Assembly (NCBI GenBank): GCA_023920165.1
Contig: CP089278.1
Location: 1 to 64,000 of the forward strand
Reading direction: 5' to 3'
From: Curvularia clavata
Lineage: Eukaryota
Length of the DNA: 64,000 bases
The position numbers and the translations under genes were made by a program. Shown here in pieces: positions 1 through 48,700 of the stretch. Within the stretch, counting starts at the first letter, position 1, and each line of letters opens with the position of its first letter. The notes under the pieces were generated by a model that saw nothing but the letters and a program-made list of their open reading frames with translations, ran no database searches and was not told where the DNA came from.

Positions 1-53
1 GTTACGTATTGCTAAGGTTAAAGAACGACTTCCATACTCGTGTGACAGCACCT
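1..53 (+). other. Oxford Nanopore ligation adapter end plus native barcode (technical artefact)
   Basis: GTTACGTATTGCT (1-13, adapter 3' end), AAGGTTAA (14-21, flank), AGAACGACTTCCATACTCGTGTGA (22-45, recalled as barcode 13), CAGCACCT (46-53, flank). Confidence 0.93.
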
Positions 54-60
54 CCCCCCC

Positions 61-150
61 CCCTAACCCTAACCCTAACCCTAACCCTAACCCTAACCCT
101 AACCCTAACCCTAACCCTAACCCTAACCCTAACCCTAACCCTAACCCTAA
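61..150. repeat. Telomeric repeat (CCCTAA)15
   Basis: 15 perfect CCCTAA units preceded by a short C run; the C-rich strand at the 5' end indicates a left chromosome end. Confidence 0.98.
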
Positions 151-164
151 CTGCCCTGTTCATC

Positions 165-320
165 TTCTACCACTCGTTCCGCCGGCGGCTCCTTTTTTAT
201 GGGAAATGGGGGGCTCTTCTATCTTGTCCCTTCTGCCATTTATTCTGCCGGTGGCTCCCTTTTTACAGGAAATGGGGGGCTCTTCTGTCTTGTCCTTTCT
301 ACCACTCGTTCCGCCGGCGG
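165..320. repeat. 66-bp telomere-adjacent tandem repeat, about 2.4 copies
   Basis: Unit TTCTACCACTCGTTCCGCCGGCGG...GGAAATGGGGGGCTCTTCT.TCTTGTCC starts at 165, 231 and 297. Confidence 0.85.
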
Positions 321-735
321 CCTATTCTTGTAGGTAATGGATTTCTCTTTTACTTACTCTATACCTATTTATCTTTTCTCTATTAATATTATCTATTTTC
401 CGTAATTTACTACTATTTATATAAATAATCTACTAAATTAGTAAACTTTAGTTATTAACTACGCTTAGTAGCTTAATACTCTTTTCTTTCTTTCTTAAAA
501 TAATTTCTTTACTACTCTTCTATACAAATAATCTAGCTTAGCTTATTCCTTTTAATCCCTCCCTATCGCTTCTTCTCACTCCCCCACCGCACCTACGCCT
601 TAAATACCCCCCTAATCTCCTCTAAGTCTATACAAAACTCTAGCCCCCTATCCTCCTTAATCGCCTACTCTATTACTTCCTATACTGCTAACCCTACTTT
701 TATTAACCCAACAATAAATACCTTACTAAGTACCC

Positions 736-3700
736 CTAAATACTAATACTAAACCTCTTTCTGCTTTTAATATCCCCCCCTCTATATATTAAACCTAAAG
801 CTCTCACATACTGCCTGCGGCAGCTAGCACCCATAGTAGTATAAATATAGCATAACCTACTAGTTATCCTGCAGCATCTTAAGTCCCTAAAGCCCTTTTT
901 TAGCTCCTTCCTCCTTACAGTCCTCCCACTTATACTCCCGCCTATCTCTTCCACTCGCTACACACCACTAACACCCTGACCCCCACTTTTTTATCACCCT
1001 AACTAGCTCTTCTATCTCTATCGCATTACGATACTGCCGCTCCGCTTCCACTATTTCTACCTACTGCCGCTGCCGTCCTTGCTGCTCAAACCCTAACCGC
1101 AGTCCTATCTCTTCTCTATCTTCCTCGTCTTCGTCTTCTCCCCCCCCTCTCTCCTCCTCCTCCTCCTCCTCTTCATCACTACTCTCCCACCGGCACCGCT
1201 GATATGCTACCTCATCCTCCTTACACATCCCCCGCTCCTCTCTATCTATTACCCAGTCAAGTACTGCCCGTATATACCCTAAGCCCTCGATAAATAACTA
1301 CATATCCTCTTCTACCTCTCCCCCCCCTGCTCTTATAAATATCTTCTTTCTCCCTCTCATCTAATATCCCTGCATGATAATCGCCTCGCTCTTCTCTCTA
1401 TCTCGTCCCGCCCATCCACTCTCCTGTGTATACTGCCGCATCTCTTGCACCCCTTCTACATGTACTACAGCCTAGATTCTTGGTGCGTCTACTTCTAGTC
1501 CTAACGTATTCGTTGCTGTAAACACTTGCTGCTGCCCACTCGTCAACGCCCGTACAATCTTCTTCTTCTCCTCTACTGTGCCTACTTCCTGGTAGTAATA
1601 CGCCGCCCCTAGTACTCTGCCTATCTACTTTGTCCGTGCGATCGTCCTATAGTACACAATTATCTGCCCTGGCAGCGGGTATCTCTTTTTCAACTTCTCC
1701 ACCAATCCCACAACTACCTTCTCCTCTTCCTCTGCCTTATACTTATGCACAGCATACCAGATGTTCTTGCGTGTCGTCTGCCCCCGGAACCAGTAGCACT
1801 TGCTCTTGTCAGGCAGTCCTATTACATCTAAAAACTGCTTCTCCTCCTTCGGCCGAAGCGTCGCTGTTAAATACACTATCTGCGTCTCCATCTAGAGCAG
1901 CTGTCGCAGTCCTAGTAGCCGGCTGCGGAATCCCTTGAGTGAGTCTAGTATTGAGTGACATTCATCAATCACAATCTGATCTAGCCGCCCTATCGACCGC
2001 TCCCGATTGATGTAATGCCTAAATGTCTCTCCTACCGCCGCTTCCGGCGTCACAAACATAATCTGCACGCTCCTATACAGACGCCGGCTATCCCACTTCC
2101 CACTAATAATCCCTAGCTCGTCATACCGTGTCTTTATATCAAATCGTAGTGCCACCAACAGCACTACTACAATCATAACCCCTGTCGACACTGATGCTGG
2201 TAGTATAAACAGCACGCTCTTACCAGCCCTAGTCCTCATAATTACTACTACGGGACTCTTATACCGCATAATCGCCTGCATCGCTGGCCGCTGTACACTG
2301 CGAAACTGCGCCTTACATCCCAGCAGCCGCTGCAGCTCACTGTCCACGTCCACCAGCCGCATCATCTTCTACCGCCGGTACTCCTCCTCCAACGCCTCCC
2401 TGCGCGCCTTGACAGCTAGCGGGCTCCGTTGCAGCAGCCGTAGCTTCTTCTCCTGCGCAGACGGGAGCTCTAAAAACCTGTGCCACTTGCTACTTGCTAC
2501 CCGGAACATAAACTGACAGGACCCGACACTAAATATAGCCTCATTCAGCGACCGTCTATAAATCGCACTAGAGACGCTAGTACTATACCCTATCTGCAAG
2601 TCAAATGCCTCGTCCTCTTCTTCGGATACCCTGTCTTCGTCTATGTCTAAGTATGCCTTACGCGCCTTAGGGTTCTAAATATACCGACGCCATATCGTCT
2701 TACATACATGCCGCTACCTAATTATATTTAGTTTAACGCTTATATACTGTAACGACGCCTTTTATATCTTAAGCTTAAGTCAGTTCGTATTCTACTGCTT
2801 ACTAGCAGGCTGCTAGTTAGTACGTATTCTACCCTCCTCTTCCCCATCTCGCTCTCCCTCCTCTTTACTAACCCCCTCACCCTTCTCGTCTGGCGTCTCC
2901 CTCTATACTATAGTCTTTACCCGGCTCGCTTTTCCTACTCTTCTTATGCCCTATAAGTCTGCACTACGCTTGCGTCCTCGTGTGGGTTCTTGCTAGCGCC
3001 GCTCGGGCTGTGGCTCCTATATATACCCACTCTCCTCCTCCGCCTCCCTCCACGCCGCCACTACCAGTCGCTGCCAAAATGGGCGGCAAAACCACAAGTA
3101 AAATACTACTAATTCGCCTACTTCACGCGGAACGTACTAGTGGATCATCTTGCTCTGCCCACTCTGCGTAATATTTTTGTGATATGTTGTCACAAAAACC
3201 ACCGCACTATCTTCGATAAAAATTCTACAACTATTCCCCTGTATATTATTTTGAAAACGGATCGTTAGTAACTTACTACTACGTGGTGGCGCACCTCCTG
3301 TTATATATATAAGTACTGCAAGTGCGTGGCGCGCTTGTTGTATCGCTTGGTAGTATGCCCAGATCCGCTCCTTCACCCACACCAGCCTACCACCCCCCGC
3401 TAGCGCCACACGCGACGCAGTAACATCCGCAAACTCGTATCGCAGTCGCTTCTCCTGCTGGATACGTCCTAGTAGCCAGCACTTGGGGTCTCCTACACTA
3501 GTAGCCTGGCGGTTACGTGCGTCTTCTATAAAACTCCACCCAGCCTATTGCGCAGCCGCATTGTCCACCAGCTTGTCCCAGTAAATAGCGGGACATGGCG
3601 TCGTCTCGGGCACCACCTCGCCCTCGCTGTCTAGCTGTAGCAGTAGTAGCTGTTTCAGCATGTCCTGCCGCGTGCTAGCAATTATGCCGTGCACCATTGT

Positions 3701-9706: not shown

Positions 9707-9824
9707 TATTTAACCCCTGTTATTGTTTTCCACTTAAAGAGTACGGACGAATATTGGGCCTTTGCTATGCAAGGTGACAATAACCGCCATATTGGTTTCG
9801 TCAACCTTATGTATATACACATCT

Positions 9825-9830
<6 letters not shown>

Positions 9831-9879
<49 letters not shown>
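9831..9879. repeat. Compound (AC)n(AT)n microsatellite
   Basis: Read directly from the sequence. Confidence 0.95.
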
Positions 9880-10280
9880 ATTTATTTACGCCCGGTAGCT
9901 GCACTGAAAAGGCTACTATCGCTAATCTAACTTCATACTTCTTGTGCTACGTCTCTATTATATAGGGTTATGCTTATACTTCCCTAAGTCTTAGTCTAGA
10001 CTAGGGCGAGATTGTAAAGGACTAGGCTCCAGGAGCAGATTGTTACACGGGGCTGAGCTATACTGGCCTAGTCTCGGTCTGGGTTAGGGGGAGAAGATTA
10101 AAGCGATAAGCCGTGCGATTGTCTGGCCGTTCGTAGTGGACAGGAGTTATGGATGTTAACCGATTGTGAAACGACAATCAATTCTATAATAAAATAACCA
10201 AGTATCCATCTGTGTAACGTCCGTCGCTGTGGGTTGAACATCCCTCGGCAAGGAACCACCAACATTGCTCAAGCACGTTA

Positions 10281-10635: not shown

Positions 10636-11994
10636 CGTTACACCTAAGTCGCAGAGATTCTTAAATATGATTGCATCTTTCTATGCTCTTTAGATCTACT
10701 TCTATCGACTGCAGGTTTTGAATAGCAAAATTACAGCAATCCAAAAAGAGCGCATGAATCTTTCGTGTTGAGCGTTAGAGCTTCAACAACAATATACCCC
10801 TGTTCTATCATGCATAGCAGCACTGCTTACTTATTCGGATACTCTATGAAATTCAAAGTAAGTTAAAGAACTTACAGCGATTCTGTAAGGATATGCAGCC
10901 TTTGCCCAGGTGTGCTCTGAGTTGTTCCGGTCTGTTGCAGCTCTGGTTCGCTTTTTGCGAGACTTTGTATGCTGACATAGCAGATTTTGAACGATTAGCG
11001 GCCTGAAATGTACTGTTACAAGCAACAAGAAGGATTCTCTCCTTGACAAGTGACGAGATGGCTGGAAGCCTACGGACGTCCACGTCAGAAGGTAATGATC
11101 ATCGCGGAGCTAGGTCACGTGATGTGCCATCTCTCCAAGAGCAACCATCCGAGGGATAGTATAACGCCTTAGGAAGGCAGCTATCCCTAACATTATAACT
11201 ATCCCTAGGAAAATTAGAACAGATAGAATAGTAGGACTAGAGATAATAAGGATATGTTAAGAGTCTAGCTCGAGTGTGTAAGGGGGCTGCGCTCTGTGGA
11301 ACAATCGCGAGGTATGCAAGAGGTTGTGTTCGATAGAGAGCTAAGTAATACTACTTGCATGGTATTTGTTTACTTATCGGAGGAAGGTTACGCCGAGCGT
11401 CTGAGCGCGTCTTCTGAGCATCGCTCGGGTTGTCTATAGATTCTGGGTGCTCCGTAGCACCCGGATTCTATAGACAACCCGAGGTCCCATCGAGGAGCTA
11501 TCCAAAGGGCGTTCAGCCGGTTATAGAGTAGAAGTAATATTAGACTTCTAGTATTAAGCTTCTTATTAGTTAGTTTTCGTAGATAGAGAGATATGTTACA
11601 TGAGGGTTGGCGCTGATACTTCTCTATCTCGATCCAGGTTAGGGCGAATAGGAATATGATCGGCTCCGTGAGGTTTGTATGGCGATGCAGTGGAGTGGGC
11701 ATGCTTATAGAATAGAAGATAACAGGTTGACAAATACCTAATCTATATTGCTATAGACTAACAAGAATCAGTCTTTCTATAGTAAAATGACTAGTGAGAA
11801 AGTACAATTTGAGTTGACCATGTAATGCGCTGCGCCCGTGAAAGTGAAAGCACGTGATTGTGTCACGTGTCTACGTTACACCACTTAGTTAGAACCTTAC
11901 TTGTACGAAGAACGTAGAAGCAAAGGTATAGCGAGAGAGACGTCGTAAGATAACTTTGCTCTCTTTATCTTCCTTCTTCTGTAGTATAGGCTAA

Positions 11995-12203
11995 TGTCAG
12001 GACCTGGTCCAAATTGGGACATGTTGGTCCAATTCCCTCCTTCTTCACGCTAGTTAGTTAGCTAGGGCTTACCTAAGGCTATAAAGCCTCCACGATCGCT
12101 AGAGGTGCTTGATAGCGATTCGTCTCGTGAATATATGGCTGTTAAAGCATAGTTCTCTCTCATCTATCTCGTGCTGTACCTTCACGCCACTAACAGTCTA
12201 ACA
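11995..12203 (+). repeat. 5' LTR
   Basis: TGTCAGGACC...GTCTAACA; TATAAA at 12080; four transition differences from the 3' LTR seen by eye. Confidence 0.95.
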
Positions 12204-12235
12204 TTCGAATCGCTCTCCTCAAGTACACCTACGAG

Positions 12236-13470
12236 ATGTCAGAGAGAGCCATGCCGAACCCAGGTAGTCGCCAAACTCGGAGCCGCCCAAGGTCAACTCG
12301 AAATACGGTAGTAGGGGACTTATAGCCTACTCTAACTAGAGACTTAATCTAGCTATCTTCAAGTGAACTATCCGAGCCTGCCGTCACGGAGGCAGATCAG
12401 GCCGAACTGGCACAGAGAAGCCCAATTTAGGGCAGCCCAGCTCGACTTGAACCACCTCAGACTACTATTGCTTAATAGCTAGACGAACTGCGCGCTTGGA
12501 GGCAACGAGCGCTTGACGAGCAAGAACTGAAACGTCTCTAGGAAATTAAGCGTCGGTTTGACCAAGGTGATATGACAGCACTGACAGAGGACCTATATGA
12601 ACTATACCGTGCGGTGGGGATACAACTAGAACTAAACGTGGGAGCTCCATGACTAGAAAAACCAACACAGTTCACAAGCCGCGATCGTGCCGAGTACAAT
12701 CGCTGGGAACGCGAATGTGAGGCAACGTTTAGGGGAAGCCCTAAAACGTTCCAAATAGAGGCAGTTAAGATCGATTTTGGGTTTAGGTATATCACTGACC
12801 CCCTACGCTCTATATGGGACGCCTATTATCACGACTACTGTAGAAAAGATACGAATTGGACACCCACGTGGCTAGACCTGAAGACTGTAATGGTGGATTC
12901 ACTGGGACCACCAGAATAGCGGAAGCTTGAAGCCCACCGAGCTCTCAAACACATCAGACAGGACTGGTCTCAGGACCCAAACGACCTGTTGGCCAAATTG
13001 GACACACTTTGGTCCGAATTGGGCAATTCCTACTCGGAAGAGCAGAGAGTGAGGGACTTTATGGGCGCTTTGACAATGACAATATAGAAAGAGTTGCTTT
13101 TACTCGAACTAGGTTAAAGAAGTATAATCTTAGACCTAAACGCGCGAGCGCGACTTATCTGGGATAGAACGAAAAGAGAGAAGCCTAGCAACGCTAGAAC
13201 AACGCAGAATAAGTAAGCTAGGAGCGGCACACCACCAAAGAACACAAGAGGGTACGAAAAAACTCTGAAAAAATAAAGACGGAATCCTGCGGATACAAAA
13301 GGTTCATACGCGGCAAACAAGGTTCGAGGACGCGACGCAGAGGGCAAAATTGTCTGTTATAACTGCGGGGAACCCGGACACATTAGTAGGAACTGTAGTA
13401 AGCACAAATAAAGCCAAGCGGCACCTGAGGAACCCAAACTGGAAAAAGGTAAGGGGCGGAGAATCTAGTA
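12236..13470 (+). pseudogene. gag: Gag with CCHC zinc knuckle
   Basis: ATG at 12236 is in frame with CYNCGEPGHISRNC at 13355; multiple TAG/TAA stops. Confidence 0.8.
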
Positions 13471-13515
13471 GCCCTACTCTCCGCCTATATTGCAAGGCTA
13501 GAGCTAGAAGAGGAC

Positions 13516-16500
13516 TTGAAGACACTTCGCGAAGCAATGTTTAGCAAACCTAGCCTACTATTGACCATAACGGTGCAAATTGGCCAAGATCCACTCGAAG
13601 CGCTGATAGATGGAGGGTCTCAACTAAATCTACTCTCAATCTACCAAGCCAAGGATCACGATTTAATAATAACTCCTATACCGAACTTAGTGGCAGAAGC
13701 CTTAAGCGGCGCGGAGTTTGAGATTTATGGTACTACAGAGGTGACTATGAAAGTTATAGATATAAGAGGGAGGACTAAAGTCTAGAATATACTTTTTGTG
13801 GTGATAGAAATGAAGTATTACCTAGTATGCTTAGGTATGCCCTGGGTCGACTTCTATAAGCCCAAAATAAGCCTCCGGTCGCGTTGAGTGCTATTTAGGG
13901 GCGTGAAATATGTAGATAGGGCTTTATATGAGAAAATCGCGATAGAAAGCGCCGAAGAGTTTGAGAAAACACTCCGAACGCCCACGACGGACGTTTACGC
14001 GCTTAAAGTGTCCACTGTGATGGGTTGGGACCTAAGCGACGAGGAAGAGGACTGGGAGGGGTTGGAGAAGCCTAAGAACGCCCAGGTTGGCCCTGATTAA
14101 GCCAAGTTGCCTTAGTTGCCACTATAGTACGAGGACTTTGCGGATTTGGCCTCGGAAGAGGATGCCAAGTGCCTTGCTGAGCATGGCCTGCACGATTTGG
14201 TGATAACCTTGAAAGAAGGCACCACGCCACCACATCAGCCGCTATATGGGCTCTCGAAGAGCGAGTTAGCGCTACTCCGGGATTACTTGCGTGAGTATCT
14301 CGCGAGAGGGTGGATTAGACATTCGAAGTCGCCAGCAGGCGCACTAATACTTTTCGCGAAGAAGAAAGACGGCACGATGAGGTTATGTGTGGACTATAGA
14401 GGTCTAAACAACATAACGCTCAAAAACTGTTACCTTTTACCCTTGATTATGGAGTCCTTGGATAGATTGGCTGAGGCAAAATTCTATACTAAGCTAGACG
14501 TCCGAGAAGCATATCATAGGGTGAGGATTAAGGAGGGAGACGAGTGGAAGATAGCCTTCCGCACTAGATACGGCCATTTCGAGTATACTGTGATGCCTTT
14601 TGGCCTTATAAACGCTCCTGTACAATTTCAGGCGTACATATACTATATCCTTGCAGGATTGGTAGATGTGAGTTGTATTGTGTATTTGGACGATATCCTG
14701 GTGTTCTCTAATATAGAAGAGGAGCACGAGAGACACGTGCGCGAAGTCTTAAACAGATTGCGCGAAGCCAAGCTGTATTTGAAGACTTCGAAGTGTGAAT
14801 GGCACACCCAACACACTGAGTTCCTTGGCTATACAGTTAGCCCCGAGGGTATAAGTATCGACCCAGATCGGGCCAAAACGGCCCAAGAATGGCCAGAACC
14901 GCGTACAGTGCGCGATGTCCGCGTGTTTCTAGGCTTCATGAACTACTATCGTCGATTCATTGCTAACTTCTCCAGAATCGCACTGCCTTTAACTGAGTTA
15001 CTGAAAAAGGAGCCGAACGCCGCCAAAGGGGGCAAAGCTCAGCGAAAAGAGGAAAGCGTACTGCTAATTCTAGACGAAAACGCCAAGAGCGCGTTTAAGA
15101 CGCTAAAAAACTCCTTTATGGCAGTACCTATCCTAACCCACTTTAATCCAGACAATCAGACTAGAGTACAGGTCGATGCGTCGGGAGGAGCGATTGCTGG
15201 CATCCTAAGCTAGTACGTGCCCAAAGAGGCTTGCTGGAGACCCGTAGACTTCTACTCGCGCAAATTAATCGCCGCGGAGTACAACTATGACACGCATGAC
15301 TAAGAGCTACTAGCTATCGTCGCTAGTCTCCAACACTGGCGAAGATATCTTGATGGGATACACTTTGATCTAATTACTGACTATCGAAACCTGAAGTGGT
15401 TCATGGAAACCAAAACACTGAATCACCGCCAGGTACGGTCTTACTTAGCCCTATCAGGTTTTGATTTCACAATTGTACACTAACCTAGGAAAACAAACCC
15501 CGCCGACAGCCTATCGCGCAGACCCGACTACATAAAAGCCGCCCAAGAGCCAAAGCAGAAGAATAATAGCGCATATGTGCCATCGCTACGCCATCTGCTC
15601 AAATTCAATGCCGAAGGGACTGCTATAGCTGCAGCTACCACCACACGATCACAAGGACGGCAGAATACAGTAGCGAAGCAACATGAAGACCAGAGGCATG
15701 CAGCATTGGCTCAAGAGGCCGACTCAGAGACGGACGAATACACTTCGGACTCATGTAGCTCAGAAGAAGACGACGTGGCCAAACCAAGTCCACAAAGGCT
15801 CAAACAGGGCCACTCTGGCCCAACCGTGCCCAAGACGGCACAGGAAAAAGTAGCAGCATTAAAACAAGGTCACGACGACCCGCTTTCTGGACATTTTGGC
15901 GCAAGACGCACATTAGAGAAACTAACGCGCCACTACAAGTGGGCTGGCATGAGGAAAGACGTGGAAGACTACTGCAAATCATGCCTTATCTGTCAAAAAT
16001 CTACCCCGAAACGGCACCTGCCATACGGGCCCCTTGCACCATTACCACCACCTAATAGAGCCTGGGAGGAAGTAACAATGGACTTTATAACTGAATTGCC
16101 ACCAAGCAAACTGCAAGGCGTAGTATACGACGCAATCCTCGTGATAGTCGACAGACTGACCAAAATGGCCCATTACGTGCCAGCACGGTCCAATTGGGAC
16201 GGAGTAGACCTAGCTCAGGCATGGTTGCGCGAAGTAATCCGTCTCCATGGCGTACCACGCCGAATCATATCAGATAGAGGCCCTTTAATGAACTCCACCC
16301 ATTGGAAGACCTTTCTTCACTACCTTAACTCGAAACGTGTACTTACTTCGGCATACCACCCACAAACAGATGGCCAGACTGAACGCTAAAATTAGACTCT
16401 AGAACAGTACCTCCGCTGCTACTGTTCCCTAGAGCAGGACGACTGGGCATTATGGATCTCAGTAGGGGAATACGCGTACAATGACAGTGTATATTCGACT

Positions 16501-17170
16501 ACCAAGGTCACCCCCTTCCAAGCATGCAACGGCATACACCCAAGAGGCGCAGAATGGCCCAAAGACGCCCAAACTGGGGGCGAAAACCCCCTAGCGGCAA
16601 GTACTGCCTCAAGAATAATCGAAATATAACAAGAGTGCAAGAACAATATTCTAAAAGCGCAAGAGTACCAAAAACGGCACGTAGATAAGAAAAGACAACC
16701 TATTCCTTTTAAGGTAGGGGATAAAGTACTGCTATCTAATAAGCATATTAAATCCCTGCGACTAAAGAAGAAGATCGACTGGAAATACGTTGGCCCAGGC
16801 ACAATAACTGAGCAAATCGGCCTATCAGCATTTAAAGTAGATATGCCTGGTCTAAAAAACGTACACCCAGTGTTCCATGCATCCTTACTAGAGCAGTATC
16901 ACCCCCTAGGTGATATACCATATCCTGAAGTCCCAACACAACATGAACTAGGCGAGATAGGCGACGATGTCTACCTCGTGGACAAAATAGTGGGATATAG
17001 GAAGAACAAGGACGATTAGTGGGAATACTTAGTGAAATGGACTGGATACCCCGACTCTGAAAATATATGGGAGCTAGCCGCTAATGTTACTCAGAAAACG
17101 CTTTAAGAGTTCTGGAACAAATCAAATTAGGTCCCTCGACGCAGACGCGGGCCAAAACGGGCCAAATAGG
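13516..17170 (+). pseudogene. pol: Pol polyprotein (PR, RT, RNase H, integrase, chromodomain), -1 frame relative to gag
   Basis: LEALIDGGSQ (protease); LCVDYRGLN, MPFGL, YLDDIL (RT); VDAS (RNase H); H..GHFG..CLIC and MDFI/ISDRG/HPQTDGQTER (integrase); YLVKWTGYPDSENIWE (chromodomain); premature stops. Confidence 0.93.
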
Positions 17171-17457
17171 GCCAATAGGAGCTAAATTAGTATATGTACC
17201 TTCACCTACTTTTTTCCCCAAAGGGTTTTATAGGTGTTTAACGGCATAAGCTGATTAGGGCAACCTGGCCCAAATTGGTCCATGTTGAACTGACATTGCA
17301 CAACAAAAACCAAGGAATGGAAAAGTAAAGAAAAGAGAATTTCAATTATCACCTCTATCCTAATGCCCTGGGTATCTCATATGAAAGGGAAGAAAACCAC
17401 TATAGCCTATACTGACCTAATTTGGGCCAAAACGGACAAAACTAGACCCAACCACCC

Positions 17458-18523
17458 TTAATCACCGGCAACTGCGGCCTCGTACTCCTTGTTAAGCCTT
17501 GCCTTGGCTTTTTCCAAGTTCTTGATGTCATTGGTGATCTTCCTCTTGGCTTGACCCTTAGCCCCCTCCTTCTCAGACATTTTTTGCAAAATCTCTTCAT
17601 TAATGTCATTGATGCGCTTCTGAAGCTTATCAGTGACATCCTCGGCAACCTTGACCTAAAGAACCAAGTTAGTCCAAATTGGGGCAATTTGGCGTAAATA
17701 GGGGGGAAAAGGATCACAAATCTCCTTCTTGCGTCTACCAGAGCCATACTTAGACTTCTTGACCCTTGCCTCGACTAAAGTTTCCACCTCGATCTCATGA
17801 GCCTTCCTCTTAACCTCTTCATCCTTCTTAGAGCGGCTAAGGGCAGAAGTCTTCACACCAGAGCGGGGATCATCTTCCTCCTCGATGGCACCAGAGGAAA
17901 GAGACAGATGAGTAGCATAAGGCTTAAACCTACATAAATTAGTCCAATTTGGGCTAGATTTAGGAAAATTGGATCACTTACTTCTTAAGTGACTCAATAA
18001 TAGGCTTACTAAATATACTAAGCCTAGTAACAGCCACCTCGTACATTTCCCTGCGCTCAGCACGAACTTCAGCCTCATTAGCACCCTCGGGGATATCTTT
18101 GTCAATAGCATAGAAGGCATCCTCAACCTTCCCAATAAGCTGGCCAAGTCTCACCCAGTCGGGGGAGAACTTATCAGGAGGAGGCACCTAACCACTCATT
18201 TAGCTCCAAATTAGACCAAATCAGAGCAAAACAGGGCAACTTACCGCAAAACAGACACGGTTGATATAAGAGCAGCGAAGACACTTCATCACCTGCCTAG
18301 GCATACCGCCAGACTCCAGTTCAACCTTGTAGCCAGACCAAGCCTCAGCTACCTCAGAATTATCGATGTCCAACATAACGCAACCCGCTCTGCCAAAAGT
18401 AACGGGCTCATTATCCCTAAAGGCGTTCAGACAGCACACACAAGCGTAGTAAGACCTCTGGCCCTTGCGTACGAACAGGTTTGACACCGTACTGCGGTTA
18501 ACGGATCCAAGTACGTTCGTCAT
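17458..18523 (-). CDS. Spliced antisense accessory gene of the retrotransposon; about 296 aa, six-Cys Zn2Cys6-like N-terminus and charged helical C-terminus
   Basis: Exons 18523-18245, 18187-17982, 17929-17722, 17655-17458. Introns 1 and 2 have GTAAG donors, CTAA branch sites and TAG acceptors and join in frame. Intron 3 has a GACTAAC branch site and TAG acceptor, but its donor reads ATTTGT (probably mutated). No other stops. Confidence 0.75.
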
Positions 18524-19116
18524 GGTTCAAGTGGGTCTTGAAGGCCCCAATTTAGGGGTGTTTGGGACGAATCGGTCGAATCTGTCGCGAAATAGATCGT
18601 ATAGGAGGAAACAGCCTAAAAAGAACAGTCAGCAGAAAACTCCAAGTCCAGGGGAAGAACCTCAGAAAAAGGCAACAAAACCAAGGTCGACTGCAAACTA
18701 GCCCAAATTGGGCCAAACTGTTGCAAACAGACCGTGGGTGGAAGGTGTCGGGCCCAAACTGAGAAGACCCACAAAATAGGAGTCTACTTACCAAAGTGGG
18801 GTTAGTGGACTGTAGGGTGTACTGGGCTTAGTCAAAAACTGGCTATTGTATCCCTAGATCCGCACTAAATTAGCGCGTCACGTGACTCTTGGCGCTACCC
18901 AGGAGTACCCCGATGGGCCGGGTTGGCCCAAAGTGGGGCAGTCGGCTAGGCAGCAGCGCAAAACTCCGCTATTATGACGTCATAGCCCTGGGGCGGTAAG
19001 TAAGTAAAATACACCCTCCAACCCACACGGCGGCATCACCCAGTAATCGCTCAAACTAGGCGGCAAGCATGATAAGTTGCGCAGCTGGGACAGCTGCACC
19101 CTAAGAAGGGAGGTAT

Positions 19117-19325
19117 TGTCAGGACCTGGTCCAAATTGGGACATGTTAGTCCAATTCCCTCCTTCTTCACGCTAGTTAGTCAGCTAGGGCTTACCTAAGG
19201 CTATAAAGCCTCCACGATCGCTAGAGGTGCTCGATAGCGATTCGTCTCGTGAATACATGGCTGTTAAAGCATAGTTCTCTCTCATCTATCTCGTGCTGTA
19301 CCTTCACGCCACTAACAGTCTAACA
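19117..19325 (+). repeat. 3' LTR
   Basis: Direct repeat of 11995-12203, followed by TSD GCTAA. Confidence 0.95.
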
Positions 19326-20186
19326 GCTAATGCAAACTCGTCCGAAGGCCTCTTCGCCCATAACAGACCATAACGAGAGTAAATAATGAAATATATCTAT
19401 CCTTATATCCTTATTGCTTCTAGTCCTGTCCTCTAGCTAAGCTGTTGGTATCTCAGATGTCGCTGGTATCTGGAGATGTCTGGTCTTGGCGAGATGCCAA
19501 TCACGTGATCTTCGTCCCGCGATGATCATCCTACCCGTGGGGATCTCTAGTGGTTTCCCAACCGTTCATCGTCATATCTAGGGAGAGGATCCTTCGTACT
19601 GTTACTTGCAACAAGATAGTATATACTAGATAGTAACTTAGGCAAGTTTAATACTATATTAGACTTATACTTAGAACTTAAGTTAAAAAAGAGCTTAATG
19701 CCTAATGCTATAACGTAAAGTATTACCGACCCAGACATACCACCGAGCCGGACACTTTTTCTTAGCATTGCGAACTTCATGTACAAAACATTATGTAACA
19801 CAAACACTACCCCTTATCCGCTCTAGATCGGGCCCTTTCCGTGGTGTCCTCTCGTCTAGGTCACAAAAGCTTTTTTGAGTACAATACTCCGATGTGTTCT
19901 ACCATCGCAATTAAGCTGCTCTTCTCTCCTGTCTTGGTTGCTCGCCCTGGCCGTTCCTGCCATACGCTAGTCCGGTATGGTGGGTTAGCGAAGCAGTAAA
20001 CGTTCGATGATGACATTAGGCCCCCTCACAGCTCCTTCGCGCTGCGCCATCGCGCGCAGAAATCACGCAGGTCTAATTCTTCCTTGTCCGCGCTGCAAGA
20101 CTTAAAATACGTCAAGCTTAACTTTCTTCTGCTTCTCGCAGACCTCTCTTTCCCAACGTCCTCTGTAGTGCTTGGATTAGATCAAC

Positions 20187-21386
20187 ATGGTCAACTTTCG
20201 CACCCTCACTTCCTTCGCATACATGGCGCAATGCGGCATACTAGGCACGAACGCATACGACGGCAGTTCCCGGCTTCTGGACATCGTCCCAAAGCGCGAG
20301 GTTCTTTACGTTGGTGGGCGTTATACGAACATTACGGTAAGTCTCGAACCGATAAATCCGTATATATCTGAGACTGCGCTATAGGACAGTATTACCAATG
20401 TCACCTCTATGGCGATGGTAGGGCAAATTTACGTGGAAAAGCTTTCGCCACACCCAGCGCCAAGGAACCAACCACTACCTATCATCTTTATTGCAGGCGC
20501 AGCTCAAACGGGGACCAATTTCCTTGAGACACCTGATGGTAGGCCAGGATGGGCTTCATATTTCATCGACAAAGGCCATACAGTTTACCTCTCAGATCAA
20601 CCAGCACGTGGCCGCTCTTTCTGGTTTCCAGGACAAGGAAACGTCGGGACACTCGGGCCACCCAATGCCGTGTCTGACCTCTTCACAGACGTCGCAAACA
20701 ATGGCAACCAATGGCCGCAGGCGAAGCTTCACACTCAATGGCCTGGGACTGGTCGCATGGGAGATCAGACGTTCGACGCTTTCTACAGAAGCCAGATGCA
20801 GTTCCAGATTGACCCATTCATAGGCGAGGAACAAAATGCACAAGCATACTCGGCTCTGGTGGATATCGTAGGACCGTGCTACATTATCACTCACTCACAG
20901 GCTGGCGCATACGGCTGGAGAGTCGGAGACATGCGCTCAGACCTCGTCAAGGGGCTTGTCCAGCTCGAGCCGTCTGGCCCTCCGTTCACGTTCCGTCCAC
21001 CTATTGGAACTGGCCCAGCGCTCGCTTTTGGCCTCACTGATCTAGCAATTCAATACAACCCATCTGCAGGCAAAGATGCGAAAGATATTAAGACAGTTAT
21101 CGAGCCAGCAATCGACGCCAATCATTACGAATGCATTATGCAAAGTGCCCCAGCTAAGCAATTAACTAACTTAGCTAAGATTCCTGAGCTTATCGTCACT
21201 GGCGAAGCTTCCTTCCATGCGCCAACCGACTACTGTACTGTCAAGTATCTTAGGCAGGTTGGAGTAGATGTAGAGTTTGCGGATCTTGGCAAAGAAGGCA
21301 TTCATGGTAACGGGCACATGTTATTTATGGAGAAGAACAACCTCGAGATCGCAGACCGGGTATACAAGTGGCTGAAGAAGCACTGA
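20187..21386 (+). CDS. Alpha/beta-fold hydrolase, possibly secreted
   Basis: Exon 1 joined in frame through intron 20337-20384 (GTAAGT..TAG). TPDGRPGWA, DQPARGRS, nucleophile elbow THSQAG, C-terminal GNGHM. Confidence 0.85.
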
Positions 21387-24999: not shown

Positions 25000-25775
25000 G
25001 GCGAACTAATAGCGAGCGTGCTTACTATAAGGATCCTATCTCAATCGCGGCCTAGTATAAGCTAGTAGAAGATATCCGCCAGACGTATAGCGTTCTAGAT
25101 TGAGATATGTACAACTTTGACAAGACGAGATTCGCGATAGCCGTTGCTATAATGTTAAAGGTAGTTATAAGCTCTAAAAGAGTTAGTTAGGTAGTTATGA
25201 TACAGCTATGTTATTGTAAGTAGGTCATAGCAATCAAGTGCGTTAATGCGTCTAGCTGTCAGAAGCTCAGCTCTATACTATGAGGTTGTTGGTTCGATGT
25301 TAGCATAGTACGAGATGGACAAGAGAAAACTATACGTAAACAGTCGTATATTCACGAGACGAATCACTAGAGATCCTTTCTATCGATTACTAAAGGTTTA
25401 TAGTCTAAGCGCAACTCTTTATAACTAATACAGTAAGAACAAGGCCAGTTGGGACTGAATTGACCCAAATTGGGCCGGATCCTGACATATGCCACTAGGC
25501 TACTGCAACCAAAAGGTACGAGTAACAGCATTCTGCTGATCTCGGGCATAGAACAGTATATATACAGATGACCTCTGCTCTAGACTACCCCACACGTCAG
25601 CCTTGCCCAAGGGTCTGACATTAGCTAGTCTTTACTACTATTCGTAACTCTATCTAGTAAAGTTTACTAGGCTGGCTAGTATCACAATCTCCCACCTAAC
25701 TCGACTGTCGGTGTCTTAGACAACGGCTAAACAATAGACGAGCTTAGTGCAAAGTGGGTGAAGTACTTCAACTGT
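25000..25775 (+). mobile_element. Fot1/pogo-like DDE transposase relic, interrupted
   Basis: Decayed MYNFDKTRF (cf. YNFDETGF) near 25110 and LPPNSTVGV.DNG.T.DEL..KWVKYFN near 25690; split by a solo LTR. Confidence 0.7.
25279..25487 (-). mobile_element. Solo LTR related to the Gypsy LTRs
   Basis: 209 bp; reverse complement begins TGTCAGGATCCGGCCCAATTTGGG; flanks TATAC/TATGC fit a TSD with one RIP change. Confidence 0.82.
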
Positions 25776-39579: not shown

Positions 39580-39786
39580 TGTTAAACTGCCAGCTCAATG
39601 GTGGCACAGCACGAGATGAACGAGAAAAAACTTTGCATTAACAGTCGTACATTCACGAGACGAATCGCTAGAGATCCTTCCTAGCGATTACTGAGTCTTT
39701 ATAGTCTAAGTTCTACCCTTAATGACTGACGTGGTGAAAGCTAAGGTAGACAGGGCTGAATTAGTCCAAAATGGGCCAGTTCCTGA
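39580..39786 (-). mobile_element. Solo LTR related to the Gypsy LTRs, inside a MITE-like relic
   Basis: Shares CACAGCACGAGAT, TTCACGAGACGAATCGCT, TTTATAG and CCAAAATGGGCC with the family. Confidence 0.8.
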
Positions 39787-44483: not shown

Positions 44484-45191
44484 GAAGCTGGCTAACTGTT
44501 TGTGATGTCTTTGATCAGCTTGGTTATCGGAACCTAGCGGGGAGATATTTCTCAAACCAGCCTTAATAAGGAATATTATTCACTAAGGATGAAATAACCA
44601 CGGGTAAATCCGCACACATCAATATTAATGCATAGATTGCTAGAAAGTCTAGTGAATAGGCGAAGAATAGTTCTATGCCCGACTTTATCGTCCTTCATGC
44701 CGTGTCTATTCTAGCTGCTTCCTGTAGCATGAAGCTACCGAGACTTTTTGCAGACCCAACAAGCATCTCAGCCTATCCTCAATCTCTGACAGGATTGAGG
44801 TCAGAACCGATCGTAATGCCAGATTTCTTGGCGAATTTGCAGACCTTAATGTTGAGGATGTAGGCTACTCAGCTAATATCAGAATTTAGATCTCTAGCCG
44901 TATCCGATCTCTGGTAGAATCTAGGAACAATAGCCGTGACTAATCGACCTGAAGACATCTATCTATAACGTCTAAGCTTACGCAAGCTACTACTAGATAG
45001 ATCCTTCTAGAATCTAGCTCAGTTGATATATGTAGTAGCAAATTAGCTAGTCGATAGAAGATAGAACACATACTAAGAGCGATTTAAATAGAGTCAGTTA
45101 TAACATTCAGCGTCTCTCCCGTAGCATCTTCTCTATCGTCTAAAATCTATCGATCACGCTGCCTCTGAGCCTACGAAGAACAAGCAGTAAC

Positions 45192-45400
45192 TGTTAGGCT
45201 GTCAGTTGCATGTGGGCACAGCACAAGATGGGTAAGAGGAAACTGTGCGTAAACAGTCATATCTCAACGAGACGAATCGCTAGAGAGTCTGTCTCGCAAT
45301 TACTGAGCCTTTATAGTCTAGGTTCTACCCATGATGACTAATATGGTAAGAATTAAGGTAAGCAGGACTGGATTGGTCCAAACTGGGCCAGATCCTGACA
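45192..45400 (-). mobile_element. Solo LTR related to the Gypsy LTRs
   Basis: 209 bp, TGTTAGGCTG...GATCCTGACA; no matching TSD. Confidence 0.85.
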
Positions 45401-48487: not shown

Positions 48488-48700
48488 TATTAGACTATTA
48501 GTTCGATGTTCACACAGCACGAGATGGACGAGAAAATACTATGCGTGAACAGTCGTATATTCACGAAAGAAGCCGCTAGAAATGCTTTCTAGAGATAACT
48601 GAAGCTTTATAGTCTAAGTGTAACTTTCAATAATGAATTAATAGGGTAAGAACAAGGCCAATCGGGGATGAATTGCAACAATTTGGGCCGGATTCTGACA
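48488..48700 (-). mobile_element. Solo LTR related to the Gypsy LTRs
   Basis: TATTAGACTATTAG (RIP form of TGTTAGACTGTTAG)...GGATTCTGACA. Confidence 0.82.

Follow-up and report, generated by a model that had tools for sequence, protein, structure and literature searches.

The copy of a Ty3/gypsy chromovirus at 11995-19325 of the window, the whole stretch of 64,000 nucleotides of Curvularia clavata that was analysed, carries between pol and the 3' LTR a spliced gene on the opposite strand, the predicted protein of which begins with a domain of six patterned Cys residues. We hold it to be probable that this copy, inactivated by RIP, comes from a family in which the antisense accessory gene is a general possession, and its protein may act on the DNA or the chromatin of the element. 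Comparison with relatives indicates that the gene is real and conserved, that it belongs to the element and that it recurs in other copies and in a related family.

The host element

The element has a length of 7331 bp and both of its borders are complete, with LTRs, a 5-bp target-site duplication (TSD) and a polypurine tract (PPT). Its parts are the following:

11990-11994 (left) and 19326-19330 (right): target-site duplication GCTAA, read from the sequence
11995-12203, plus strand: 5' LTR, 209 bp, TG..CA ends, palindrome CCAAATTGG at 12009
12204-13450, plus strand: leader and gag, CCHC knuckle CYNCGEPGHISRNC, 13 stops in frame on translation
13453-17106, plus strand: pol, 12 premature stops in 1218 codons
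14359-14838, plus strand: RT of pol, in which a protease is also present
from 15073, plus strand: RNase H of pol
15850-16362, plus strand: integrase of pol
16717-16902, plus strand: SH3 domain of pol
16972-17094, plus strand: chromodomain of pol
19103-19113, plus strand: polypurine tract AAGAAGGGAGG, conserved in the metagenome relative L001 (see below)
19117-19325, plus strand: 3' LTR, 209 bp, TG..CA ends, palindrome at 19131

The translated pol matches the Pfam families RVT_1 (E 2.4e-36), RT_RNaseH_2 (4.9e-08), Integrase_H2C2 (1e-19), rve (8.6e-08) and SH3_Tf2-1 (2.1e-13), and the match to Chromo (E 7.3e-13), with one internal stop read as X, scores 48.7 bits against a cut-off of 25.1. The presence of RT, RNase H, integrase, SH3_Tf2-1 and Chromo, together with the LTRs, the TSD and the PPT, places the element among the Ty3/gypsy chromoviruses, and the earlier note on this DNA, which had taken the host for a Gypsy chromovirus, was right in this respect. 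The 5' and the 3' LTRs are 97% identical over 216 aligned bases. The spacer of 2 kb between the end of pol (17106) and the start of the 3' LTR (19117) is filled by the antisense gene.

About 1 kb past the 3' LTR lies an open frame of 333 codons on the plus strand (20385-21386), probably a neighbouring host gene, with a sub-cut-off match to Abhydrolase_6 (E 0.0015). Elsewhere in the window, a strong negative GC skew (-0.55 to -0.34) accompanied by a negative AT skew is observed over 1-3000, and a dinucleotide microsatellite at about 9800-9900, which translates as THTHTH/IYIYIY and CVCVCV on the two strands.

The antisense gene and its predicted product

The gene is read on the minus strand from an ATG at 18523 to position 17458, and its four exons join into 891 nt, a frame of 296 codons that stays open up to the terminal stop; the exon coordinates and the stop-free frame agree with those given in the earlier note. 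The gene and its surroundings, in the direction of reading, are composed as follows:

18524-19102, minus strand: 5' UTR and presumed promoter, RNA-library contig at 18472-18699, palindrome-like sites at 18547, 18703, 18791 and 18928
18523-18245, minus strand: exon 1, 279 nt, 93 codons, conserved six-Cys domain
18244-18188, minus strand: intron 1, 57 nt, GTAAGT..TAG, position as in L001, palindrome-like site at 18206
18187-17982, minus strand: exon 2, 206 nt
17981-17930, minus strand: intron 2, 52 nt, GTAAGT..TAG, position and phase as in L001, palindrome at 17944
17929-17722, minus strand: exon 3, 208 nt, conserved KP(Y/F)..L.L.SGA motif and basic stretch
17721-17656, minus strand: intron 3, 66 nt, ATTTGT..CTAAC..TAG, palindrome sites at 17674 and 17684
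17655-17458, minus strand: exon 4, 198 nt, 65 codons and stop, K/E-rich helical hairpin
17107-17457, minus strand: downstream region or 3' UTR, RNA-library contig reaching to 17423, palindrome-like sites at 17162, 17270 and 17417

The sequence bears out the description of introns 1 and 2 as canonical, with branch sites of the CTAAT/CTAAA type, and of intron 3 as aberrant, its donor being AT although its branch site, CTAAC, is good and its acceptor is TAG. The product would consist of about 296 residues, in which a six-Cys domain of 93 residues is followed by a charged linker that includes a basic stretch, and then by a helical hairpin at the C-terminus; K and E account for 63 of the 296 residues. 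The basic stretch, encoded by exon 3, suggests a nuclear location for the protein. The Cys residues occur at positions 28, 30, 31, 48, 81, 84 and 91, and apart from the extra Cys at 30 their spacing is CX2C-X16-C-X32-CX2C-X6-C, the pattern that had been read earlier from this sequence.

Relatives and conservation

Exon 1 was searched exhaustively with HMMER against 1.84 billion protein representatives, and the nine matches obtained comprise seven true relatives (92-309 residues) and two repeat proteins. A word-indexed protein search with exon 1 gave no match among longer proteins and none among proteins of nearly the same length, while the family profile, used in a word-indexed search, gave four proteins, three of them already known; a scan of viral contigs found no relatives. 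Matches in the Protein Atlas (P0005 at 0.76, exon 1 at 0.91) are bacterial hypothetical proteins with few common features and were discarded as noise.

Ten sequences with 26-45% identity to the window were aligned, and ten columns are invariant (N15, C28, C31, G44, G47, C48, C81, R83, C84 and C91), among them all six of the patterned Cys, so that the Cys pattern seen in the window holds for the whole alignment. Short ORFs make up six of the seven relatives; they end a few residues past the last Cys, mostly in 'AVS', as read-through of GTAAGT would give. P0005 is an annotated hypothetical protein of 309 aa from a 351-kb contig of Alternaria gaisen, and the spliced protein of the window (residues 8-285) matches it (residues 7-306) at 26% identity with an E-value of 6e-23, in a single alignment that passes over all three junctions.

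The only relative with flanks, and the only locus from a narrower metagenome scan, is L001, a metagenome contig of 2189 bp. Its exon 1 measures exactly 279 nt and is followed at the same place by an intron of 62 nt (GTAAGT..TAG); its exon 2 ends in the phase seen in the window, and its intron 2, of 57 nt, is again at the same place. The 166 codons available are free of stops, and the protein is 35% identical to that of the window over 182 aa (E 1.6e-41). The upstream flank of the L001 gene contains, placed as in the window, a PPT homologous to that of the element and an LTR that shares its termini, TGTCAGGA...AGTCTAACA. The two loci agree in exon length and in the position and phase of their introns, while these introns and the UTRs no longer align well. 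The dN/dS comparison proposed in the earlier note gave, for the window against L001, a pN (0.44) that is smaller than pS (0.69), and the ratio of about 0.35 is a rough value since dS is saturated. A chance ORF was considered as an explanation of the frame and was rejected, as homologues exist, the Cys are invariant and the intron positions are conserved.

Transcripts and splicing

The run X13 is a metatranscriptome library derived from a 96%-identical relative, other than the genome under study. In its record 17, a contig of 260 nt (depth 4.1, 10 other letters), the stretch 17423-17657 is followed by 25 further letters. As judged by eye, 21 of these 25 are identical to the terminal part of exon 3 (17724-17748); two more, at 17734 and 17736, are the letters of other copies, which brings the agreement to 23 of 25. 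The bases 17656-17657 of the record are identical in both readings, and the contig joins 17655 to 17722; intron 3 has therefore been removed exactly as predicted. No comparable joint at intron 3 is listed among the 1040 contigs of the DNA run X1.

Other X13 contigs cover 18472-18699 and 18363-18499, and a gap in the X13 cover extends over 17658-18362, introns 1 and 2 included. The cover at 18472-18699 implies a 5' UTR of at least 176 nt. Record 18 (depth 2) joins 18416 to 18473 and thereby skips 56 nt (18417-18472) bounded by GT..AG on the minus strand, so that the frame shifts and C28 and C31 are lost; another X13 contig reads through the same interval, and the skip may represent a minor, cryptic or regulatory splice isoform. 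One contig of X10, guessed to be an RNA run, is unspliced through intron 3, and contigs of X8 enter intron 3 and pass intron 2 unspliced; these contigs may stem from DNA or from sense-strand RNA. We infer the splicing of introns 1 and 2 from their conservation and from the gene model of P0005. The spliced antisense transcript proposed in the earlier note is thus indicated for intron 3, in the relative, by the junction in one X13 contig (depth 4.1), and for introns 1 and 2 it is suggested by conservation.

A transcript of this kind could also matter as antisense RNA, by feeding dsRNA or small RNAs or by controlling the copy number, with the ORF being secondary. LTR retrotransposons are strong sources of small RNAs in Botrytis cinerea, where the expression of sense together with antisense BcGypsy3 RNA yielded moderately more small RNA than that of the sense RNA by itself, according to the available portion of the report (PMC8365987), and the frame-breaking skip of 56 nt in exon 1, seen in one contig, would agree with a role for the RNA. 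An RNA-only role would, however, preserve no protein, and we regard it as improbable since ten residues including six Cys are invariant at 26-45% identity, the exon length, intron positions and phases have outlasted the divergence of introns and UTRs, and pN is smaller than pS.

The six-Cys domain and the C-terminal region

None of the exons matches a Pfam family above the cut-off, and exon 1 has no match at E <= 1. The zinc-cluster models of Pfam, including PF00172, match none of the 10 family members at E <= 10, and the same is true of the DUF3716 profile; no bZIP match to Pfam was found in the antisense protein. Against the PDB the family profile finds nothing but a PHD finger of Pygopus (E 1.1), and no Gal4-type chain at E <= 10. 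An AlphaFold model of the six-Cys domain, built from the 10 sequences and free of metal, has four helices (pLDDT 76, pTM 0.63), with both CxxC pairs at helix N-termini. For this model no match was obtained with Foldseek against the PDB at E <= 0.001, with VIA-align among 48,161 chains at Z >= 2, or in BFVD.

For the C-terminal region, exon 4 gives weak, sub-threshold matches to coiled-coil hairpin families, and the model of P0005, with the same N-terminal pattern and long helices, has a C-terminal helical hairpin, homologous to exon 4, at pLDDT above 90; its structural matches are generic helical hairpins only, at Z 9.5 or less. The helical C-terminus expected by the earlier note agrees with both observations.

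The Cys of Gal4-type Zn2Cys6 clusters are spaced CX2CX6CX5-12CX2CX6-8C, and in Gal4 the CxxC pairs lie at the N-termini of short helices. The antisense protein resembles this class in having six Cys, invariant here, with a second half of the form CX2CX6C, a coiled-coil-like part downstream and, in the model, CxxC pairs that are likewise at the N-termini of short helices; a genuine Gal4-type transcription factor captured from the host is nevertheless quite improbable. The spacing rule fits only the second half, whereas the first half is CX2CX16C and the halves lie 30-34 residues apart, with the long gaps kept in 10 of the 10 aligned sequences, and the profile and fold searches described above are negative for this class. 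The label 'Zn2Cys6-like' of the earlier note is not supported on these grounds. Instead, the comparisons indicate that the N-terminal domain is probably a zinc-binding six-Cys domain of an undescribed family that stands outside the Zn2Cys6 class.

Occurrence in other copies and in a related family

Contigs of four public runs were aligned to 15500-19500 for the comparison of copies. From X1 1040 contigs were aligned, with all 30 bins covered from the end of pol to the LTR. The end of pol, the gene and the LTR are covered in X1, X8 and X10 alike, as is the spacer, and the gene is covered in X1 by many variant contigs, just as pol is. L001, which represents a second, diverged family, has the gene at the same place, and the gene is counted as a regular part of the element. 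The view of an antisense, spliced and element-borne gene is supported in this way by the PPT and LTR flank of L001, the intron conservation, the RNA junction at intron 3 and the cover in other copies. That an ordinary host gene lies inside, or was recently picked up by, one element family is very improbable. The annotation of P0005, on a contig of 351 kb, is simply that of a hypothetical protein, and in some fungi an ordinary host copy may exist; but in the far-diverged L001, the one relative locus with flanks, the gene occupies the corresponding place with a homologous PPT and LTR at its side, many variant X1 contigs run over the gene as over pol, and the protein searches gave no close host paralogue.

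Decay of the present copy

The copy in the window has been inactivated by RIP. The differences from other copies are considered here for the best 40 of 209: 38 of these best-supported differences are T or A in the window against C or G in other copies, with a CpA context in 33 of the 38 cases, and 17 of the 40 fall in the antisense CDS, where 12 are synonymous and 5 nonsynonymous. The antisense protein of the window accordingly differs from the family majority by five amino-acid changes. Among the 40 listed differences, those of RIP type are strand-biased over 15671-19148, with T in place of C as far as about 17935 and A in place of G beyond about 17560. The best public run contains a share of 0.45 of the sampled words of the window, as is expected when the copy is RIP-mutated; runs of two organisms that were guessed to be RNA contain almost none of these words and carry no weight here.

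At place 17721 other copies have the letter that gives GT, at a depth of 1032.5 out of 1114.6 in X1 (8 contigs) and of 3.7 out of 3.7 in X10. Since other copies carry G at the odd donor and the differences follow the RIP pattern, the AT donor of intron 3 is one of the mutations of the window. Owing to this mutation the protein would terminate in the retained intron, and the antisense gene of this copy is probably dead or crippled, as far as its sequence tells.

The earlier note had set the absence of stops from the antisense frame against their abundance in gag-pol. The contrast itself is true, with none in the antisense gene, 12 in pol and, in the gag frame, 13 between the 5' LTR and position 13450, some of them perhaps upstream of the gag start. 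As evidence it is weak: 12 of the 77 stop-prone Q and W codons of pol have turned to stops, and with only 8 codons of this sort the antisense gene would, at the rate of pol, be free of stops with a probability of about 0.26. The stop-free frame is thus uninformative on selection, and the absence of stops, expected about once in four, was rejected as a sign of it. The copy is a decayed relic, of value only as a witness of its family.

Palindromic sites in and around the antisense gene

The palindrome CCAAWTTGG occurs nine times in the window against 0.43 expected, a number that none of 100 shuffles reached, and seven of the nine occurrences are within the element. The sites in the element are as follows:

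12009, 12993, 17270, 17674, 17944, 18703 and 19131: exact palindrome sites
17162, 17417, 17684, 18206, 18547, 18791 and 18928: palindrome sites with one mismatch

With up to one mismatch allowed, the 2-kb spacer holds 11 sites, a density of 5.5/kb against 0.19/kb outside the element (29-fold). All 11 are non-coding, with three downstream of the gene, four in introns, four upstream and none in exons, and each of the antisense introns holds at least one. In each LTR a single site lies 15 bases in from the start. The flanks of the palindrome extend the symmetry to half-sites of about 7 bases.

L001 has five sites, where 0.43 would be expected and none of 500 shuffles gave as many:

1113, 1409, 1539, 1891 and 2084 of L001: palindrome sites, three upstream of the gene, one in intron 1, one in intron 2 and none exonic

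The LTR of L001 is without a site. In four of the five introns of the window and L001 taken together, a palindrome directly precedes the branch site.

Of the 11 palindrome sites outside the element, five adjoin solo LTR-like fragments of related families. Four LTR-like fragments, at about 25300-25490, 39600-39770, 45190-45380 and 48510-48680, are 78-84% identical to the LTR of the element, in opposite orientation, and have a palindrome-like site close by in each case; from their sequence they look like solo LTRs of related families.

Proposed role of the antisense protein

The account favoured here supposes that a multi-copy family of Ty3/gypsy chromoviruses carries the antisense accessory gene between pol and the 3' LTR as a regular part. 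The gene would have an upstream region of its own, beside the 3' LTR, and three short fungal introns, which survive retrotransposition because they are antisense in the genomic RNA. In the protein the six Cys would bind zinc, and the protein would act on the DNA or chromatin of its own element and so regulate transcription or silencing. The palindrome of the LTR and of the non-coding parts of the gene is the most likely candidate for its target.

A more specific version of this account can be formulated, in which the six-Cys domain is the first of a new family that binds zinc and reads DNA, and the protein pairs by way of its helical C-terminus and recognises CCAAWTTGG, so that the element would mark or regulate itself. 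In this detailed form the proposal is speculative and rather unlikely to be correct. If it were true, the palindromes would sit in the introns because these are the only free places inside the gene, and a retrotransposon would be regulating its own copies through a self-encoded factor, by activation, anti-silencing or a limit on copy number.

Relation to known antisense genes of retroelements

By its place between pol and the 3' LTR, its opposite orientation and its occurrence in other copies and in L001, the antisense gene belongs to the class known from plants as aORF-3R and from Boty as brtn. Boty has an LTR much longer than 209 bp. The earlier note did not recognise the gene as characterised in fungi, and on this point it has to be corrected, since Zhao et al. 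published in 2011 an antisense gene of the same kind, brtn, from the Boty-like Ty3/gypsy elements of Botrytis cinerea and Sclerotinia sclerotiorum, as cited in the accessible parts of later papers (PMC8365987, PMC7264820, PMC4227169, PMC5987419). According to an excerpt of one of these, brtn is missing from the latest B05.10 annotation (PMC8365987). Both cases concern a Ty3/gypsy chromovirus of a filamentous ascomycete with an extra opposite-strand gene between pol and the 3' LTR; they differ in that the LTR here has 209 bp and that a six-Cys domain and a palindrome array go unmentioned for brtn in those excerpts, and the likeness is one of kind. No protein named BRTN was among the relatives from the protein searches.

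In plants, aORF-3R genes between pol and the 3' LTR are listed, in the accessible part of the source, for maize Grande1, rice RIRE2, Silene Retand and Phaseolus PvRetro13 (PMC7264820). The likeness extends, as far as these excerpts go, to position, orientation and conservation within the family and is drawn without a sequence relation; the plant genes belong mostly to non-chromovirus lineages, whereas the fungal gene described here has splicing documented by an RNA junction. Some fungal chromoviruses are marked with 'additional ORFs of unknown function' in a figure legend, the part of that paper available to us (PMC2864245). Full-text searches of the literature gave, besides brtn, no fungal case with a described protein, so brtn stands as the one published fungal precedent in the material accessible to these searches. 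What is new here is the undescribed protein family and the candidate cis-motif.

The best functional analogy may be offered by HBZ of HTLV-1, a spliced minus-strand gene of a retroelement expressed from the side of the 3' LTR, which encodes a nuclear bZIP protein; this protein has a basic region and a coiled coil, and it modulates transcription of the sense strand. HBZ differs in being the bZIP protein of an animal retrovirus, whereas the antisense protein has no bZIP match and its six-Cys domain is without a counterpart in HBZ. The VANC proteins of the Arabidopsis VANDAL DNA transposons, to which the earlier note had referred, are anti-silencing proteins that recognise short motifs spread over their own element; the resemblance lies in the idea of a transposon-encoded factor that reads such motifs, and to our knowledge there is no sequence relation between VANC and the antisense protein. 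An anti-silencing activity of the latter, suggested by this analogy, is pure conjecture.

The accessory genes of LTR retrotransposons are poorly understood, and the plant antisense ORFs and brtn are still without an assigned function in the accessible parts of the literature. The present locus adds a well-delimited fungal example, with a six-Cys domain that is in no family library, intron positions kept across diverged element families and a direct RNA junction, and the palindrome, as a candidate cis-motif, makes a concrete binding test possible.
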